Positions 3,428-43,478 of a DNA stretch of 43,968 nt are shown piece after piece. Positions within the stretch are counted from its first letter, which is position 1; every line of letters starts with the position of its first letter. Origin of the DNA: a virus. Its lineage: Duplodnaviria > Heunggongvirae > Uroviricota > Caudoviricetes. Under the pieces are notes generated by a model that was given only the letters and a program-made list of their open reading frames with translations, was not told the origin of the DNA and made no database searches. The DNA lies in the IMG/VR virus record IMGVR_UViG_3300045988_181214, one strand, 5' to 3'. The translations under genes and the position numbers were made by a program.

Positions 3428-6400
3428 TTATTTGTTTGACTTCATTTTTTGATATTGGCTCCATTGGCGGTCGAAGCCATCGGGGCCGGTGATGACCACG
3501 TATGACTTGATGCCAGCGTTGAGCTGCTCGTTGAGTCTGTCGATGGTGGTATGCACGCTATCGAGGGATGCGCCCATCTGCTCGGTGTCGCCACCTGAGA
3601 CGTTGACCACTGGGGCGACCACGGCTGCGCTGCCTGTGCCCATGGCACGGCTCACGTCTTGGGCGGTGAGCGAGGCGACCGTGTTGTTGCGCTGCGCCAT
3701 ATCGATGAGCTGCAGGGCAGGGAGGAGCTGAGGATTGTTGACGGCGTTGTGGTTGGCGACGAACTCGCCAGCGTGAACCACGCCAGCCTCTTTCTTGTAA
3801 TTGCCAGGACCAGTGAAACCACCCTCGTAATAGCCAGCCGCCTCTGCCTGGTGCTGCTTTTTGATTGTTGCTATCTGGAGCATGCCCGCTGCGGTGGCGA
3901 GACCTGCGGCGATAGGACCAAGGATGTGACCCACCACTGGGATGGCTGCGGCTGATGAGTAGGCGTTGATGGCAGCCATGGCGGTTGAAGCTATGGCTTG
4001 TGCGATCTCTATCTTCATCGCCTTTTTGTTGGCCTTGCTCTTGGCTGCAGCCACCTCTTTGTCTCGCTTCGCCTCGAGACGCTTTTTCTTGGCTGAGTTG
4101 TTGCCAGCGGCAGAAATCTGCTTATCGTAGTTTTTCTCAATCTTGGCGACCTCTAGGTCTGAGCATGCCTGGGAGTAGGCGGAGGCAGCGCCCATCATCG
4201 TGTTGATGCTGCTGAAGGCAGCGCCAGCGATGGAGGCTATCTCTTGATAGGTCTCTTTGTTCATCTGCTTTTTGGCATCCTGGTATTGCTGCTCGCTGAT
4301 TTTATCCTCGTCTCGAAGATTTTTGAGGTTATCGTTGACCATCTTTTGCTGTTGGATGGCTGCGATGGCACCACCAGCGATTGTGGCGAGGTTGTCGCTG
4401 CCCATGGCATTGTTGCTGTCACCATTGCCCTTGGTCATCTTTTTGGCGGTGTCGAGGGCGGTGTTGGCATCCTCCTTGCGCTGCTCATCGGCGGTTGGCT
4501 TGTATGAGGCGTATTTGTTGGCGATGCCCATCTTTGTGCGCTGGTATTCCTCCTCTCTGATGAGACCTGCCTTGTAGATGGCTTCGAGTCCCTGCAGATC
4601 TAGCTGCATCTGCTCTTCGTTGCCGAGCTTGCCGTATTCTTGGCGCAGCTGAAGGAGTTGCTCGTCGTGCTGCTTCTGAAGGTCGTATTTGCGTTGCTGT
4701 TGGGTCAGCTCTCGCTCTTTCTCGATCTGGGCATACTCGTCAGATGAGGAGAGGTAGAGGGCTTGCTTTTTGTTGAGATAGTCCTGGTATGAGAGGAAGA
4801 GAGCCTCGTTGACGGCATCCTCATTGTGATAGAGGTTGGAGTCTTTGTTGTAGTAATCGGCATTGAGCTTCATTTCTTTTTTCTGTCGCTCGGTCTCCAG
4901 GGCTTCGAGGTCGGCGGTCTGCTTTTTCTCGTAGTCGGCGGCGATATTCTCTTTCTCAGCGTTCAATCGCTTGAACTCTTCGCTCTCTGCCTCGCCATAC
5001 TTTTTGAGGATGTCGAGGCGAGCCTGAAGCCCCTGTTCTTTGATATTCTTCATCTTCTCGTTGTATTCGGCGAGTCGAATCTGACCTGTAGCGTAGAGGG
5101 TCTTGGCATCGAGCTCTTCGGCTTGGTTGGCTTTCTTTGCATCGTCTAGCTCTTTTTTCATGTCAGCCTTGCGCTTAGCCTCTGCCTTGCGAGCGGCAGC
5201 CTCACGTTTCTTTTTCTCCTTTTCGGCAGCTTTGCGCTCTTTCTCGGTCATGGTATGACCAGAGGAAGGGGTGGTGTGTGTCTCTGTAGTTGCGCTATTG
5301 TTTAGTAAATTCTTCTTTACAGTCTTGTTGTACTGTTTCTGCAAATTTACGTTTTTCTCTAATTGCTGATTATAGAAATTCTCTTCAGCATTGACTTGCT
5401 TTTGCAGGCTTAGGTTTGCCTGTAGTCTTTGCGTATGAACTTGCTTTTGCTTCTCGTTACTCTTCAGTGCCTCGTTTTGTTCGATGAGCTGACCTGTCCA
5501 TCCATCAGCCACGGCATTGCTCTCATATTGCTTAGGATGAGCCTTGCGCTCAGCATCGACAGCCTTCAGCGAATATCGTATGCGGCTTTCTTTTTGTTTG
5601 AGTTCCAGTTTCTTTTTATTGATTTCCACCTTGCGCTCATAGATGGCTTCTGCCATGGCAGCATTTTCTAGCTCCTTGATGTAGTTTTGGATGGCAATCT
5701 GGTTGTCGTTATACAACTTGCCCTCTTTGGAGATAGAGGCGTGATATTCTGGGACGAGCTTTATCATATTTGCGATAGCTTGCTTTCGCTCGTCAACGGT
5801 ATAGGCATTGGAGTGGATAACCTTGTTGAGCATATCGACCTTGTTGCGCTCATCGAGGGTAGCATCAGACACCTTTTTGGCGAGGCTGGCTTGAGCCTCT
5901 GCCACTGCTCTGTTGTTTTTAGCCTCTTGCGTGTTGTTGCGCATCGCCTCGTTGTAAGATGTTATGGCTTTGTATGCCCCATAGGCAGCCACGCCCACCA
6001 CGGTGATGACTGTGGCGAGGGCAGCCCATGGATTGGTGAGACTTGCTAGGCGTGCTGCCCTCATCACCACGATGTAGCCCTGTATGCCTTTTGTGAGATA
6101 AGCCCATGTGGCTTGCAGTGCCACTAAGGCAGCACGCAAGAGTGTAGATGTAGCGGTATAAGCTTTATCGACAGCTGAAGCGTATTGTACGGCGGCTGTT
6201 TTAATCTTAATGGCGATGGTCTCCTTGTACCAGAGAGCAGTACAAACAGCGATGGCTGTTGACAGCACGGCTATTTGTTTTGCATAGGTGACGGTGAAGG
6301 TGATGAGCGTGGACATGACCTTTATGGTCAGACTGAATGATGTGATGCCATATTTCATGGCAGGGATGAGTTTTTCTCCGAGTTCGATGGTGAGGTCTTG

Positions 6401-10320: not shown

Positions 10321-10358
10321 TAATAAAAATACGAGACCGCCCTAACGATCTCGTATTA
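10321..10358 (-). terminator. Intrinsic terminator hairpin with T-tract
   Basis: Stem ATACGAGA / TCTCGTAT with a 12-nt loop, followed on the minus strand by TTTTTATTAT; shares an identical 20-mer with 7809-7828. Confidence 0.5.
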
Positions 10359-10370
10359 TATGTTTAACTG

Positions 10371-10778
10371 TTAGACCTCTCTTGAGAGAATCTCCTTGGC
10401 TATCTCTTTGGCCTCTTTGCGCCACGACTGATAAGCCTCGAACTCTGCCTCGTGAGTCTCGTCGCCATCGCCACGGTTGGCTAGGATGGCCTCTACCTGG
10501 TTTTGGCTGTATCGGGTGCGAACCAAACCAGCGGTGAAATCGTCGTAGGTGGCTGCGGTCGCCTGAATCTTGGTCGAGCCATCAGGCTCTGTGCCCTCAT
10601 AGCTGTAAGCAGTGACACCCTCGGAGTTTTCATCTTCTGACTGCTCTGAGGTATCGGAAGAGCCTGTAGCGGCCTCAGGGTGATAGTTTTCAACTTTCTG
10701 CTCACCAGTGTAGAGCAGATAATGGTTATCGTCATATTTGACGAAGCTCTTGCGAGCTAGATAATACTTCTTGTTCAT
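10371..10778 (-). CDS. Hypothetical acidic protein co-transcribed downstream of the DGR RT
   Basis: 135-aa ORF, ATG start 7 nt after RT stop; Asp/Glu-rich; no recognisable motif. Confidence 0.5.
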   Translation of the reverse strand: MNKKYYLARKSFVKYDDNHYLLYTGEQKVENYHPEAATGSSDTSEQSEDENSEGVTAYSYEGTEPDGSTKIQATAATYDDFTAGLVRTRYSQNQVEAILANRGDGDETHEAEFEAYQSWRKEAKEIAKEILSREV

Positions 10779-10784
10779 AATTGA

Positions 10785-12359
10785 TCACGTGAATTTATAG
10801 AACTTCTTTTTGAATTTATTGTGAAGCTCTGCGACCACGGTGGAGAAGGGTAGCTCATCACGACAGAAGTCGTTGAGGGCTTGGTCTATCAAGATCTTGG
10901 AGCCTGTATAGAGGTAGTGCTCCAGAGGTTGCCATACCTCGGTGCCGTCTGGCTCCAGGTGGTCGATGATGCGATAGCGTAGGGAGAGGCGCTTCTTGGG
11001 CACCTCTTTGGTGACCATGTGGGTGGAGCCGTCCGGGGCGGTCTCCTCTTGCTGGATGGTCTCCTTCTCTATCACCGAGTCATCGACCTTGTAGTCTATC
11101 ACTTGAACGAGGAACTTGTTCTCGTCCTGACCCTCACGGCAGATGATGTCCTCGATGGACTGCTGCTGTGATTTCTCCATACCGTCAAAAGGCACGCGCG
11201 CACGGCGAGCCTTGACGAGTTTACCGAATCTTTCCATACCGATTTTCTTATATAAGTTTTTAGAGTTTGCGTGGATGCCCAGACCTAGGCGAGAGGCTGC
11301 CTTGAGCTGTATCTGGCGGTCTGTGAAGCCCGCCTTGCGTAAGTTGGCGATCTGTCTGCAGAGGTCGTGCTTGAACCGCTTGCGCAACAGGGCGTGGTCG
11401 GCGTAGATGATCTGACCGCATAAGTCGATGCCATCGCAGGTGCGGTGGATACCCCAAGACTTATTGATGGATAGGTGCCAGTCACGGGCGAGGTGCATCA
11501 CGGCAAGCTCTGCCATCAGCCTGAGGAACACCTTATCCTCGTGGAGGATGTAGATGTTGTCCATGAAGCGGTAATAATGGCGAAGACCTTGGCGGCAGAA
11601 GCGCTCGAACCTATCGTTGAGCGACTTCACTCCCCCGCATAGCAGTTGAGCTTGCTGCTGAGTGCGACAGGTAACGAGCATGTCGCTCACGTAGCGAGCC
11701 TGCCAGTAACGGAACTTGTCGGTGTCTTGGAGAATGTCGAAGCATCGGAGTGCCAGGTAATCGAAGCGGGCGAGGAAGAGCTGACCCAAGAGTTGGGCGA
11801 GCTTGACGCCGAGCACGATGCCTGGATTGAAGCTATCGACCACCTCGTCGATGAAGGCGAGGAGCTTGCGGTCTTTGATCTTGCGGCGATATTCACTTTT
11901 GAGAAGAGCGTGGTCTATGCTCTGAAAATAATGGTGAATATCCATGGGCAAGCAGTAGAAGGTATCTTGCTGTGGCGAGTTGAAGATGTCTCGCTTGACA
12001 AGATTATAGAAATAATGGGTGCCCTTGCCCTTGGAACCAGCCGGACTGTGGCTGTAGAGTGTCTTGCGAAGGTTATCCTCTACAGGTTGCAGGGCAGCGT
12101 GCTGGATGACGTGGTCGATAACGGGCAGCTTGTTGACTTGGCGATGTTTTGGATAGTCGATATCTTTGGCGACATAGGCTGAGGTATGCCAAGTTTGTTG
12201 GGTGTAAGCATCGAGCATGCGTCCGATGTTATGGTCTAGGTTTGCCTCGAATTTTTGGACCGCACGGCGAGACATCTTTTGTCGGGCGTAGTCATAGAAT
12301 GCCCGACGAAAGTTGTCTAGTGTCTCGACCTGTAGCGATATGTTGCCAAACCTTTTCAT
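10785..12359 (-). CDS. Reverse transcriptase (DGR-type), catalytic motif non-canonical
   Basis: 524 aa from first ATG (track ORF starts at GTG 12428); RT motif 2 SPAGSKGKGTHY, motif A LPMDIHHYFQSIDH, motif B-like GIVLGVKLAQLLGQLFLARFD; sits 208 bp downstream of the template repeat. Confidence 0.8.
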   Translation of the reverse strand: MKRFGNISLQVETLDNFRRAFYDYARQKMSRRAVQKFEANLDHNIGRMLDAYTQQTWHTSAYVAKDIDYPKHRQVNKLPVIDHVIQHAALQPVEDNLRKTLYSHSPAGSKGKGTHYFYNLVKRDIFNSPQQDTFYCLPMDIHHYFQSIDHALLKSEYRRKIKDRKLLAFIDEVVDSFNPGIVLGVKLAQLLGQLFLARFDYLALRCFDILQDTDKFRYWQARYVSDMLVTCRTQQQAQLLCGGVKSLNDRFERFCRQGLRHYYRFMDNIYILHEDKVFLRLMAELAVMHLARDWHLSINKSWGIHRTCDGIDLCGQIIYADHALLRKRFKHDLCRQIANLRKAGFTDRQIQLKAASRLGLGIHANSKNLYKKIGMERFGKLVKARRARVPFDGMEKSQQQSIEDIICREGQDENKFLVQVIDYKVDDSVIEKETIQQEETAPDGSTHMVTKEVPKKRLSLRYRIIDHLEPDGTEVWQPLEHYLYTGSKILIDQALNDFCRDELPFSTVVAELHNKFKKKFYKFT

Positions 12360-12567
12360 AAGCGGTGTAATGTCTGTGTTGAACGGTGTATAAACTGTGT
12401 ATAGTCTGAATCGTCTGCTTTTGTACACTTGATAACCTTCGACCGGATGACCGTGTTGTCATCATCTACCAGCTGTCTTATTAATGTGTATGTATCGCCA
12501 TGGGGCGAGGATTGACCCTGTAATCTCGAAGTGGGAGCAAACGACCCACGAAGAGATATGTCTGTAA

Positions 12568-12689
12568 GTTGAGGGCGGCGCCGTAGTTCACATTGGCATT
12601 CGAGACAGCATTGTTCACGTTGAGCGTTGAAAGACCGCATTGACCACCATTGTTAGCGTTAGCACCACGAAGGCAGACACGAAAACCGG
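12568..12689 (-). repeat. DGR template repeat (TR), noncoding
   Basis: 122 bp matching 12979-13100 at constant offset 411 with no indels; 9 mismatches, all at T on the plus strand (A on the transcribed strand); Asn (AAC)-rich in the target frame. Confidence 0.85.
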
Positions 12690-12723
12690 CACCTAGGGTC
12701 ACACCCTGGTATCATAACCGCCG

Positions 12724-12731
12724 CAAAGGTA
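12724..12731 (-). promoter_or_regulatory. -7 promoter element (TAccTTTG) upstream of TR-RT
   Basis: Minus-strand ATTTTTATTACCTTTGCGG ~35 nt upstream of the TR. Confidence 0.45.
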
Positions 12732-12927
12732 ATAAAAATAATCGGTATGGAAGCATGTCAAAGAGCTTTTTTGATGTTTTTATTGATATTTTTTTTGTCG
12801 CCGACCGCCACAGGCGGTAACTTAAGGCGAGCTACGCTCGCTGGGTGCTTCGGCTTCGCCGAGGGTGCTCAGGTCTCTTTTGCACACCCAGTAAACCGAT
12901 GCACACCCAGCAAACTGATGTAGTCTC

Positions 12928-14400
12928 TTAGGCCGCCTCGTAATACACGGGTTCAACGGACCACTCGGATGCTGCTTCGCAGAGGGCGGCGCCGCAGTTC
13001 ACATAGGCATTCGAGACAGCATTGTTCACGTCGAGCGTAGAAAGACCGCATTGACCACCATCGTAAGCGCTAGCACCACGAAGGCAGACACGAAAACCGG
13101 ATGTAGCACCAGACGTATTCCAGAAATAGCTAGTCCAGTAGGTTGACTCGGATGCGCCCGTAGCGGTCGGGAAGTTCTCTAGATGCTCCATCGAGAGCGT
13201 CTTGATATAGCCTTCGCCCTTGGTCGGCGAGGTGCTGTAAGCCACCATGCCATCGGTGGAACCTATCGTCCACGTGCCGTAGATGGACGGTGCCACGAGA
13301 TGGGTCACGGAAGTGTCCTCGTTGCAACGCACCTGCTCGTCATCCATGTGTCGCCACAATAAGCCGAAGCCATTTTTGTAGCCGAAGAAGGATGGTATCT
13401 TGGCGGTATAGACCACGGTGCCATCGTCTTTTTTGACCTCGTAGCTCGCCTCGCCGCAAGCGTCGCCAAGCTCGATGCCAGCCGACATCGGCACGACAGG
13501 GCGATAGCCGTTGTAACCACCCCAATCAGGCATCTGTGTCACGCCAGCGCCGAGACCACCCTGGTAGAGACCGTTGGCATCTTTTTGGCTGTTGACGGCA
13601 TCCTGGTCGTAGTGGGTGCCGAAGATGACCCCGAAGAGCACGGAGATGGCAGAGGTGTGGCGCATGGTGGTGCAGAGCCAGCCTGTGCCGTTTTTGCGGG
13701 CAGCAGCACGCCAGTATTCGGTAGTCTGGTTGGTGGCAGCCTTGCCCAGCATGGTGCGGTTGGTGTTATCTAACGTGGAGTCGTTGTTGCCGCCTCGGTA
13801 GTTTGTGCCCTCGTTGATGTAGCTCACCAGCTTGCCTGTGCTGCGCTCTAGCGTGGCGAAGCCAGCGGCGGAGATGCTGCCCACAGGTATCTTGTAATTG
13901 TACTCGCCTGGTATCGGCGTAGGGCTGACCATCTCGTAATGGAGTCTGCCCACGGTCTTGATGACCATGTACCACTCCTTGCCCCAGCCCCACTGGTAGT
14001 GCCCCTCTGAGCCATCGAGCTTGGCTGTCTCGCCGGTGGCATACTTGTGGTGGTCTTTGGAGTCGAGCTTGCGACGGGAGTGGTCATTCTTGACCAGATA
14101 ACAGCCCAGACCCAGCTCCGTTGGTAGGGTCTGCAGTAACTCTAGCGAGCCCACATAAGTGGCGGCTTTAGGGGTTGCATTGTCGAGGTTCCACACTCGA
14201 CCACACCAAGGATGCTGTCCCATTTGGACGGCGCTTTTGAGCGACATCTGCTCAGACCTGCCGGATTTTTTGTCGAAGACCTCGACAATCTTGTCAGTGG
14301 CGCTCATGTCTGACTGTGGGAGGTCGTCAACCTGTTGACCTCCATCGAAAGCGGCTATGATAGCCTTGAGCTTACTCTCTTCTTCTGATGTTAATGCCAT
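12928..14400 (-). CDS. DGR target protein: tail-fibre / receptor-binding protein with C-terminal variable region
   Basis: 490 aa from ATG (track ORF extends to 14448); VR occupies the last ~40 codons; lies within the tail-fibre gene block. Confidence 0.75.
   Translation of the reverse strand: MALTSEEESKLKAIIAAFDGGQQVDDLPQSDMSATDKIVEVFDKKSGRSEQMSLKSAVQMGQHPWCGRVWNLDNATPKAATYVGSLELLQTLPTELGLGCYLVKNDHSRRKLDSKDHHKYATGETAKLDGSEGHYQWGWGKEWYMVIKTVGRLHYEMVSPTPIPGEYNYKIPVGSISAAGFATLERSTGKLVSYINEGTNYRGGNNDSTLDNTNRTMLGKAATNQTTEYWRAAARKNGTGWLCTTMRHTSAISVLFGVIFGTHYDQDAVNSQKDANGLYQGGLGAGVTQMPDWGGYNGYRPVVPMSAGIELGDACGEASYEVKKDDGTVVYTAKIPSFFGYKNGFGLLWRHMDDEQVRCNEDTSVTHLVAPSIYGTWTIGSTDGMVAYSTSPTKGEGYIKTLSMEHLENFPTATGASESTYWTSYFWNTSGATSGFRVCLRGASAYDGGQCGLSTLDVNNAVSNAYVNCGAALCEAASEWSVEPVYYEAA
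12979..13100 (-). repeat. DGR variable repeat (VR) at the 3' end of the target gene
   Basis: Encodes the C-terminal ...GFRVCLRGASAYDGGQCGLSTLDVNNAVSNAYVNCGAALC of the target; matches the TR except at template-adenine positions; GC-rich 3' end GCGGCGCCGCCC (IMH-like). Confidence 0.85.
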
Positions 14401-14422: not shown

Positions 14423-15187
14423 TTAAACAATGCGTAATTTATCACCAACTTTTCTAAGCTTGCCCGATGCCGACAGGCGAAGGCGAGGCTGGCGCACGGT
14501 GATGCTGACCTCTTGCCAGAGCGGTGTGTTGGCGGTGGGGATGACCCAGAACTTGGTGGTGCCCTCGCCCTTGATGATGAGGTTGCCGCTTGGGTCTGCC
14601 ACGAGCGAGTCGCCCTCGGCTCGCTGGAAGAGCACGCTCTGAGGGAGGTAGCTCGGCAGGATCTGCACGGCGATGCGCAGAGCCACCTTGTTGCGTAGGC
14701 TTATCTCGGGGAGATAGGTCAGGTTCATGCGAGCTGGCGCGATGAAGCCTGTGGTTATCTGAGCGGCGAGACCATCCATCTGCGCTATCTTGGCATCGGC
14801 TCGCTTGGATGCCGCGTCAGCCTCTGCAGCCTTGGTCTCTGCCAAGGCTGCCTGTGATGCTGCAGCCTCGCCCTGCTCGCCAGCCGCCTTGGCTGCGCTC
14901 TGGGCGAGGTTAGCCGCCTTGTTGGCATCGTCGGCCGCACCCTGCGCTCTGACGGTCGGTGTCTTGTCGAGCCACAAGCGCCACTTGGCGTTGGTATCTG
15001 AAGGAGTCGTCGTGTTGCCATCCTCTAGGGAGGCGAAGACTCCTGACGATGTGTGAACGATGTCGCCCTCGTCGTAGCCCTTGACGGTCTGGCCATCCTC
15101 ATCTTGATAGGAGTAGCCCGACTGCCAGGTGCCCTGGTCGGTGAAGGCGACATTGCCCACGATAATGATGTTTGTGTTATCTGCCAT
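14423..15187 (-). CDS. Tail fibre-associated protein (Ala/Gln-rich coiled region)
   Basis: 254-aa ORF, ATG start; central AAKAAGEQGEAAASQAALAETKAAEADAASKRADAKIA repeat-like segment. Confidence 0.5.
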   Translation of the reverse strand: MADNTNIIIVGNVAFTDQGTWQSGYSYQDEDGQTVKGYDEGDIVHTSSGVFASLEDGNTTTPSDTNAKWRLWLDKTPTVRAQGAADDANKAANLAQSAAKAAGEQGEAAASQAALAETKAAEADAASKRADAKIAQMDGLAAQITTGFIAPARMNLTYLPEISLRNKVALRIAVQILPSYLPQSVLFQRAEGDSLVADPSGNLIIKGEGTTKFWVIPTANTPLWQEVSITVRQPRLRLSASGKLRKVGDKLRIV

Positions 15188-43407: not shown

Positions 43408-43424
43408 AGTCTTGCCGCCGCAAC
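43408..43424 (+). repeat. attR core (direct repeat of the tRNA 3' segment)
   Basis: AGTCTTGCCGCCGCAAC identical to 140-156. Confidence 0.75.
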
Positions 43425-43431
43425 AATGCAA

Positions 43432-43478
43432 ATCGGGTAGAAAGTTGTAATTCAACATTCTATCCGATTCTTTTTTTA
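43432..43478 (+). terminator. Host copy of the tRNA terminator, displaced to attR
   Basis: 11-bp stem ATCGGGTAGAA / TTCTATCCGAT followed by TCTTTTTTTAT. Confidence 0.5.

Follow-up and report, generated by a model that had tools for sequence, protein, structure and literature searches.

Diversity-generating retroelements (DGRs) are, to our knowledge, the only natural system of targeted protein hypermutation in prokaryotes, and all the mechanistic knowledge of them that we are aware of comes from the Avd-dependent Bordetella element. The Avd accessory gene is missing in about 26-29% of known DGRs. Here we analysed a stretch of 43,968 nucleotides from a tailed phage (Caudoviricetes; IMG/VR record IMGVR_UViG_3300045988_181214), hereafter the window, in which an earlier note made from the letters alone had pointed out a template repeat (TR) and a variable repeat (VR). 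We conclude, with a probability of roughly 90%, that the window carries a functional DGR in a temperate phage of Segatella/Prevotella-type Bacteroidales. Its parts are a tail-protein gene that contains the VR, the TR, a gene for an unusual reverse transcriptase (RT) and a small gene which we call p135.

The DGR of phage BPP-1, ordered mtd - avd - TR - brt, shares its basic plan with the window. Both have a TR/VR pair with adenine-specific substitutions, and in both a tail protein of C-type-lectin fold carries the VR at its C-terminus; Mtd itself was among the top fold matches of the window's target protein. A GC-rich block closes the repeats in both. A predicted pairing between the two flanks of the TR, upstream and downstream, is also shared and resembles in layout the 'cPRT Stop duplex', an upstream/downstream duplex reported for BPP-1 and 207 other DGR RNAs (bioRxiv 10.1101/2023.10.23.563531). 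Unlike BPP-1, the window is without avd, the 292 nt between the VR and the TR are non-coding and hold a putative promoter, a small acidic gene follows the RT gene, and the GC block has no internal differences between IMH and IMH* (initiation of mutagenic homing). The RT is 523 amino acids long with an extra β-rich C-terminal domain, compared with 328 in BPP-1. Motif C reads FMDN instead of YMDD, motif B reads LGxxxAQ in the sub-clade of the window where BPP-1 has SQ, and the spacer RNA is RT-17 and not RT-10.

The avd-less DGRs described by Wu et al. 2018 (Architecture A/E, Lineage 3/3a; PMC5758913) share with the window the absence of avd, the Bacteroidales hosts and a C-terminal extension of the RT, in their case of up to about 150 residues. 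The text of that paper which we searched does not mention a changed catalytic motif. The Hankyphage and crAss-like DGRs also belong to gut Bacteroidales phages that diversify a tail protein, with genomes of roughly 43 kb. Their RTs are about 320-335 residues long, judged by the extent of the tblastn match, and are 23-29% identical to the window RT over the RT core; no nucleotide similarity to the window was found. We considered whether the phage was a Hankyphage, which its size of ~44 kb and its Bacteroidales DGR had suggested, and rejected this, as there was no nucleotide match and the RT was 23% identical. The RNA that lies between TR and RT gene has a described counterpart as well. The motif RF03020 (RT-17) was published among RNA motifs found near RT genes with no assigned function, of which RT-10 alone had been linked with a DGR (Weinberg et al. 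2017, PMC5737381). The window matches it over its full length and, as in the published motif, upstream of an RT gene. In the window it sits within a larger predicted structure, beyond the Rfam model, that includes the S1 helix and the P1 hairpin described below.

We compared the two copies of the repeat, 12568-12689 and 12979-13100, base by base. They align without indels, the offset being 411 throughout, and differ at nine positions (12569, 12570, 12584, 12594, 12621, 12628, 12651, 12654 and 12659). At all nine the lower copy has T on the plus strand, that is A on the minus strand, and the upper copy has C or A. Since the genes of the DGR region all lie on the minus strand, the differences read as A>G or A>T relative to the copy adjacent to the RT gene. 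An independent repeat search returned the pair as 12571-12689 and 12982-13100, 119 nt long and 94% identical. A third copy of the TR was sought in the window and not found.

The earlier note had described a pair of 122 bp with nine mismatches, every one at a template adenine. The offset, the lack of indels and the restriction to adenines were borne out, but the two outermost mismatches turned out to be something else. The difference at 12569/12570 (AAC in the TR, TGC in the VR) is the same among the 73 related viral-contig loci listed and in the window, the TR ending in ...CTC|AAC and the VR in ...CTC|TGCGAA. Because it is fixed in the relatives, it marks the end of homology and not mutagenesis, and the pair is thus 119 nt long with seven adenine substitutions. 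Position 12584 (codon TAC) varies in related VRs (TAC/TGC/TTC/TCC) and is a true mutable site. Chance as the source of the adenine-only mismatches is excluded. All seven core mismatches fall on adenines, which occupy 23 of the 119 TR positions (P = 4.4e-6); for nine of nine on 25 adenines per 122 positions, as first counted, P = 1.7e-7.

Read in the frame of the target gene, the core TR holds five AAC and four AAT codons, and 21 of its 23 adenines stand at codon positions 1 or 2. The residue changes from TR to VR are N>S, N>Y, N>D, N>D, N>Y and Y>C, plus a silent TCA>TCT, in agreement with the earlier description of an AAC-rich TR facing Ser, Tyr, Asp and Cys codons. That note had also seen an IMH-like element in the GC-rich 3' end of the VR. 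A GC-rich, adenine-free block of 13 nt, CGGCGCCGCCCTC, is indeed present there. The same block closes the TR at 12571-12583, its position is kept across the family, and homology stops directly after CTC in every locus. As the TR and VR versions are identical, the block alone cannot account for the directionality of homing. The hairpin that straddles the VR boundary has in other lineages a stem of 7-9 bp at the same place (CCTCTGCG/CGCAGAGG), and may have a role in target recognition.

An open reading frame (ORF) of 73 amino acids at 12481-12702 on the minus strand is the TR read in the VR frame and not a gene. It matches both the target family phrog_5302 (C-terminus) and the RT family phrog_1423 (N-terminus). 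Some RT entries in databases were therefore predicted with a fused-on TR, a trap for annotation.

Related loci were collected with an RT alignment that retrieved 80 viral loci and 39 genome loci. A recognisable TR/VR pair was present in 104 loci, to which the mismatch and promoter-box counts refer, and the counts of RT motifs and p135 neighbourhoods were made over 121 loci. Of 1184 TR/VR mismatches, 1126 (95%) were at TR adenines, although A makes up 18.5% of TR bases. The adenines were replaced by G in 519 cases, by T in 385 and by C in 222. Mean pairwise differences within five clusters of related phages were 0-3 nt between TRs and 13-16.5 nt between VRs; phages that are near-identical have the TR in common and diverge 13-16-fold more in the VR. 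The columns that vary between VRs coincide with TR adenines, and in a cluster with identical TRs all 21 of 21 did so.

The closest comparison was given by two IMG/VR contigs of 43.9 and 44.6 kb (L002 and L003), in which the RT protein is 100% identical to that of the window. Over 8572 aligned nt the window differs from them at 16 and 28 positions. Twelve of the 16 and 15 of the 28 differences fall within the 119-nt VR, and the TR holds one. This one difference within the TR, G>A, is found only in the window, whose VR has T at that site, so homing took place after the change in the TR. The conserved TR and variable VR which the earlier note had proposed to look for in related prophages, as well as the confinement of changes to adenines, were thus found across the family and again between near-identical genomes. 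Together with a DGR-type RT nearby and an Mtd/TaqVP-like target, they uphold its reading of the repeats as a DGR.

Some relatives depart from the common pattern. The TR of one locus (L006; TR 5677-5793, VR 5277-5393) has 14 adenines, compared with 22-24 in its sibling TRs, and carries the G's of its own VR at positions where the siblings keep A. It looks as if this TR was partly overwritten by VR-like sequence, by VR-to-TR conversion or mis-homing. Overwriting of this kind would erode the mutability of the element. In two other loci non-adenine mismatches were numerous (13 of 23 in L013 and 16 of 33 in L098), which suggests that their VRs are decaying or recombinant.

The RT gene starts 215 nt downstream of the TR end. 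Its product matched phrog_1423 at 2e-52, and its best match by sequence in the PDB was bRT, the RT of phage BPP-1 (8ub7, E 2e-10). In the fold search bRT, a DGR RT, was again the best match, ahead of group II, retron and DRT enzymes. Weak NCBIfam matches were to group II RT and Drt2. No Pfam domain, including RVT_1, was recognised in the RT even at E = 10. Pipelines that rely on RVT_1 would therefore miss this family. The β-rich C-terminal domain covers about residues 400-523 (130 aa), and no relatives of it were identified.

The VR encodes residues about 433-473 of the target protein. This protein matched phrog_5302, 'tail protein', at 2e-58, and no Pfam domain was found in it even at E = 10. 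Its AlphaFold model had a mean predicted local distance difference test (pLDDT) score of 89.6, and the only meaningful fold matches in the PDB were TaqVP (5vf4, E 4e-6) and then Mtd (1yu*). The global TM-scores were 0.24-0.43, so the match is one at the level of domain and fold. On the basis of the model, the target is predicted to be an Mtd/TaqVP-like tail protein with the VR at its C-terminus, within a C-type-lectin-type ligand-binding domain. The mechanically called ORF of the target runs on to a TTG at 14448.

None of the 48 window ORFs matched the Pfam family 23S_rRNA_IVP/Avd, and the 292-nt gap between the VR and the TR contained no ORF or plausible gene. A homologue of p135 directly follows the RT gene in 112 of 121 loci, including those with RTs only 32% identical. 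In divergent loci the target, the RT and p135 are the only detectably conserved genes, and the flanking genes are not. In one metagenomic contig (L121) p135 still follows the RT, but its own downstream neighbour is another, tail-like gene. The family has a median length of 129 aa (range 119-171), an isoelectric point (pI) of 4.85 +/- 0.35 and a dN/dS of 0.09-0.20. Of 86 unique family loci, 51 have a hairpin and T-run behind their p135 homologue, comparable to those in the window. These observations make p135 a candidate fourth component of the cassette.

It may instead be an ordinary phage tail or assembly gene that happens to lie behind an inserted TR-RT unit, in which case the RT would act alone or with host factors. 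We take this as a real possibility, if one somewhat short of even odds. Most loci with p135 come from related phages with conserved gene order, and the protein is acidic, unlike the nucleic-acid-binding Avd. Searches of p135 against Pfam, PHROG, NCBIfam and PDB sequence profiles gave no match. An exhaustive profile search returned 584 matches (E <= 0.001) to small unannotated proteins, mostly over the C-terminal half only, so this half is common to hundreds of small unannotated proteins of 100-130 aa. Ten p135 relatives were assigned to no family either, apart from one sub-threshold match of a remote relative to Phage_TAC_11 (E 0.002), a family named tail assembly chaperone in Pfam and described there as tail tube protein. 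Against a mere neighbour speak the 6 nt that separate p135 from the RT stop codon and the common unit, from promoter to terminator, that it forms with the RT. The conservation behind very distant RTs and the retention of p135 in divergent loci where other neighbours were lost or replaced point the same way. Its properties also fit the CH1 accessory class of avd-less Bacteroides DGRs, which is likewise small, acidic, without motifs and adjacent to the RT (PMC5758913). The pI of CH1 is 4.7 +/- 0.2, close to that of the p135 family, while its length of 160-169 aa exceeds the p135 median; the two were compared by description.

The most unusual part of the element is the active site of the RT. Motif A contains D139, motif B is LGVKLAQ and motif C is F-M-D-N, with the codon of Asn267 (AAC) at 11556-11558 on the minus strand. 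HMMER pairs R-F-M-D-N-I-Y-I-L of the window with R-Y-M-D-D-I-V-V-L of bRT, and in the structural model D-N lies in a two-residue turn between strands 260-264 and 267-272. The catalytic aspartates of bRT are Asp138, Asp215 and Asp216 (bioRxiv 10.1101/2023.10.23.563531), and both motif-C aspartates were 100% conserved in a survey of 155 DGRs (PMC3521204). The short DGR RTs recovered in our RT comparison have the canonical YxDD as well. D-N was present in 111 of 121 homologous RTs, and F-[AMV]-D-N in about 110 of these 121, with identities as low as about 32%; the change of Y to F accompanies the D>N change. It is thus not a lesion of one genome. Four basal members with long RTs retain Y/L-A-D-D, and one locus from these basal lineages (L104) also has an adenine-biased TR/VR pair. 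In the motif B signature, [LIV]GxxxSQ, the window has Ala for Ser, most relatives have LGVKLSQ and some have TQ. The dN/dS of the RT in comparison with relatives was 0.02-0.12, which indicates strong purifying selection. The spread of D-N, the basal D-D members and the low dN/dS together indicate that the D>N change arose within the family and was maintained in evidently active enzymes. Full-text searches of the literature for RTs or DGRs with an F/YxDN motif gave nothing relevant.

There is a natural precedent for such a substitution. The L polymerases of Mononegavirales carry G-D-N, with Asn in place of the second motif-C aspartate, and like this RT they are right-hand polymerases, active with Asn at this position. 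They are RNA-dependent RNA polymerases of an unrelated lineage, so the precedent concerns D>N only, but with it an active RT with this change is not implausible.

The same substitution could mean that the element is a fossil, its RT killed by D>N and its TR/VR differences left over from past activity or made by an RT acting in trans. The Asn at the second aspartate of the Y-x-D-D box and the failure of Pfam RVT_1 to recognise the RT would fit this, and so would a relative (L016; 5634-5750 / 5221-5337) whose VR is 100% identical to its TR, being either undiversified or freshly reset. We consider it very unlikely. Against it speak the conservation of the F-x-D-N box over most of the family and the dN/dS given above. 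Loci with F-x-D-N show the adenine-biased mismatches family-wide, phages with identical RT proteins have different VRs, and the window VR has responded to a private mutation of its TR. A second RT, which could have acted in trans, was not found among the window ORFs.

An ordinary segmental duplication, in which the tail gene's 3' end was copied and the copies diverged through random mutation or recombination, beside an unrelated RT (of a retron, a group II intron or a defence system) can be practically dismissed: duplicated cassettes are frequent in tail-fibre genes and the weak NCBIfam matches could be read in this sense, but all window mismatches are at adenines with changes to G, T and C across relatives, the invariant copy is the one adjacent to the RT, the best structural match of the RT is a DGR RT, the TR is non-coding in its context and flanked by conserved RNA structure, and non-adenine mismatches, at 5% of 1184 in the relatives, are not at the expected frequency, so the idea is already contradicted.

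Several points weigh against a functional DGR. The RT has Asn at the position equivalent to bRT Asp216 and lacks the Y-x-D-D box. The window VR carries only 7 substitutions of the 23 possible, and in the window the hairpin on the VR side has a stem of just 4 bp. Between promoter and TR, a 5' leader hairpin covaries by eye, but the z-score of its minimum free energy was not significant (mean z -0.5). Activity is something we infer from population variation, and the priming site, the transcript ends, the role of p135 and the role of the C-terminal domain are putative parts of the mechanism.

The functional DGR reading is further supported by the conserved layout of the RNA. A -7 box match, TAnnTTTG, was present in 103 of 104 loci, most often 34 nt upstream of the TR. 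We take TAnnTTTG to be the Bacteroidetes -7 promoter consensus, and transcription would start downstream of it. The second conserved box, at 12757-12765, lies farther upstream than the usual spacing of the Bacteroides -33 TTTG would allow and could be a regulator site for TR-RT expression. A sigma-70 promoter scan was also run, which is uninformative for Bacteroidetes.

Two short segments that bracket the TR, S1 and S1', are predicted to pair with each other. We tested this in 34 lineages that were registered by flanking conserved anchors and not by the pairing itself. Cells were paired in 92%, compared with 55.7% in shuffles and 39-52% in slid controls. All seven pairs change on both sides, with 97 double-change cells compared with 27 in shuffles, and the observed values were reached by 0 of 500 shuffles. 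The covariation indicates that a long-range helix clamps the TR.

Downstream of the TR, the arms of the P1 hairpin differ among lineages and yet stay complementary (22 distinct 5' arms among 35 stems of at least 5 bp). The P1 loop GUUUGC (12537-12542) is complementary to an invariant GCAGAC (12413-12418) in the tail of RT-17, and RNAalifold pairs the two, with 12 bp in the window. The core of this pairing is almost invariant, and the extension pairs covary in some lineages only (cognate 1.59 bp, swapped 0.93 bp). The P1 loop and GCAGAC are thus a pseudoknot candidate for which the covariation is suggestive. The RT-17 match covers model positions 1-95 of 95, and RT-17 was located between TR and RT in 6 of 11 other loci scanned. 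It is followed by ACAC(C/A)G-like repeats, with a mean of 2.9 copies per unique spacer compared with 0.67 in shuffles; related loci have 2-8 copies with a modal spacing of 11-12 nt. The repeats could bind a protein or act in the control of translation. A match to CRISPR-DR9 at 12492-12516 was dismissed as chance (E 0.37).

The coordinates of all these features are collected in Table 1. The tail-gene transcript probably ends at the two GC hairpins 3' of the target stop. Several relatives have a T-run behind the hairpin equivalent to the GGCGGT one; the window has an A-run instead.

Table 1. Features of the DGR region, by position in the window
Feature	Position	Strand	Remarks
Terminator-like hairpin	10328..10357	-	13-bp stem, then T-run; closes the TR-RT-p135 unit
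p135	10371..10778	-	135 aa, pI 4.6; starts 6 nt after the RT stop
Reverse transcriptase	10785..12356	-	523 aa; extent by homologue comparison
ACAC(C/A)G-like repeat array	12357..12410	-	Between RT-17 and the RT start codon
RT-17 RNA (Rfam RF03020)	12411..12512	-	59.9 bits (gathering threshold 40.4), E 2.5e-9
S1' (AGGGUCA)	12513..12519	-	3' strand of the predicted TR-bracketing helix
P1 hairpin (GUGGG/CCCAC arms)	12531..12550	-	Arm covariation
TR	12571..12689	-	119 nt, 23 adenines; repeat search and base-by-base comparison
S1 (UGACCCU)	12695..12701	-	5' strand of the predicted TR-bracketing helix; pairs with 12513-12519
TACCTTTG, -7 box match TAnnTTTG	12724..12731	-	Conserved-box comparison, 104 loci
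Box CTCTTTGAC	12757..12765	-	25 nt upstream of the -7 box; TCTTTGA in about 90/104 loci
Two GC hairpins, ACCGCC-TGT-GGCGGT and GGCGAGC-GTA-GCTCGCC	12804..12841	-	3' of the target stop; read from the sequence
Target (variable-protein) gene	12928..14400	-	490 aa; length by homologues
Hairpin CTGC-GAA-GCAG	12972..12982	-	Straddles the VR 3' boundary; not at the TR
GC-rich adenine-free 13-nt block CGGCGCCGCCCTC	12982..12994	-	VR 3' end, IMH-like; read from the sequence
VR	12982..13100	-	119 nt; repeat search and base-by-base comparison

From these elements we propose how the DGR may work. A transcript would begin at about 12715, a short way downstream of the -7 box, and would include the TR, RT-17, the RT gene and p135 before it ends at the terminator (10357-10328). 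The RT would bind the structured RNA that flanks the TR, possibly aided by its own C-terminal domain and/or p135, which would replace Avd. It would then copy the TR into cDNA and place random nucleotides opposite adenines, with Asn in catalysis instead of the second aspartate of the Y-x-D-D box. The cDNA would replace the VR as far as the GC-rich CTC boundary. In this way the ligand-binding face of the tail protein could be altered at up to 11 residues, most of them coded as Asn, and the receptor specificity with it.

We further propose, tentatively and at close to an even chance, that the family is a distinct DGR subtype. Its RT would be active with two carboxylates for catalysis, Asp139 and Asp266, and with Asn267, the C-terminal domain and/or p135 would replace Avd, and the cassette RNA would be of the clamped RT-17 type with the loop-GCAGAC pairing. 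Part of this is already described in general terms, namely the avd-less architecture, the C-terminal extension of the RT and the small acidic partner gene. The conserved loss of the second catalytic aspartate in a large and evidently active clade of DGR RTs appears to be undescribed before, and so do the assignment of RT-17 to a DGR and the covarying TR-clamping helix in this lineage.

One relative on a low-coverage metagenomic contig (L121:1-1236) has an RT of the LADD type that is 35% identical and interrupted. Its C-terminal β-rich domain forms a separate ORF of 130 aa. Either a sequencing error or a natural split of the RT could explain the interruption.

The rest of the window is consistent with a temperate phage. 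A tRNA-Met lies at 83-158 and is followed by a tyrosine-integrase gene (275-1438). The stretch 140-198, which comprises the 3' end of the tRNA and the following bases, is repeated at about 43408-43469 with 83% identity. The two copies look like attL and attR of an integrated prophage of ~43 kb, and with this end repeat the window looks like the whole prophage. Other genes encode a tape-measure protein, a ClpP-type protease and an amidase. Among the window ORFs Pfam also recognises a protein with a RadC-like JAB domain and one with a phosphoribosyltransferase domain, both of them cargo that is not part of the DGR.

The nearest relatives of the RT, at 87-88% identity, come from isolate genomes of Segatella (Prevotella) copri, such as those of OF03-3 and iAP1412. 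The RT family spans the Bacteroidales, and its prophages are present in Segatella, Prevotella, Bacteroides, Alistipes, Parabacteroides, Duncaniella and others. A relative of the RT is encoded in at least 520 IMG/VR stretches, and among 50,697 deposited phage records there was one related entry only, an unannotated gut contig. Our literature searches found nothing specific on DGRs in S. copri prophages.

The family is thus an abundant group of gut-phage and prophage DGRs, with population-level evidence of ongoing adenine mutagenesis without Avd. It gives the orphan RNA motif RT-17 a biological home, and it is a compact system in which the minimal requirements of mutagenic retrohoming could be studied. 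If the distinct subtype is real, it would be a large natural exception to the 'invariant' YxDD rule of reverse transcriptases, and adenine-specific infidelity or metal preference could stem in part from the altered active site. For the phages of Prevotella and Segatella, the DGR may matter for host range.

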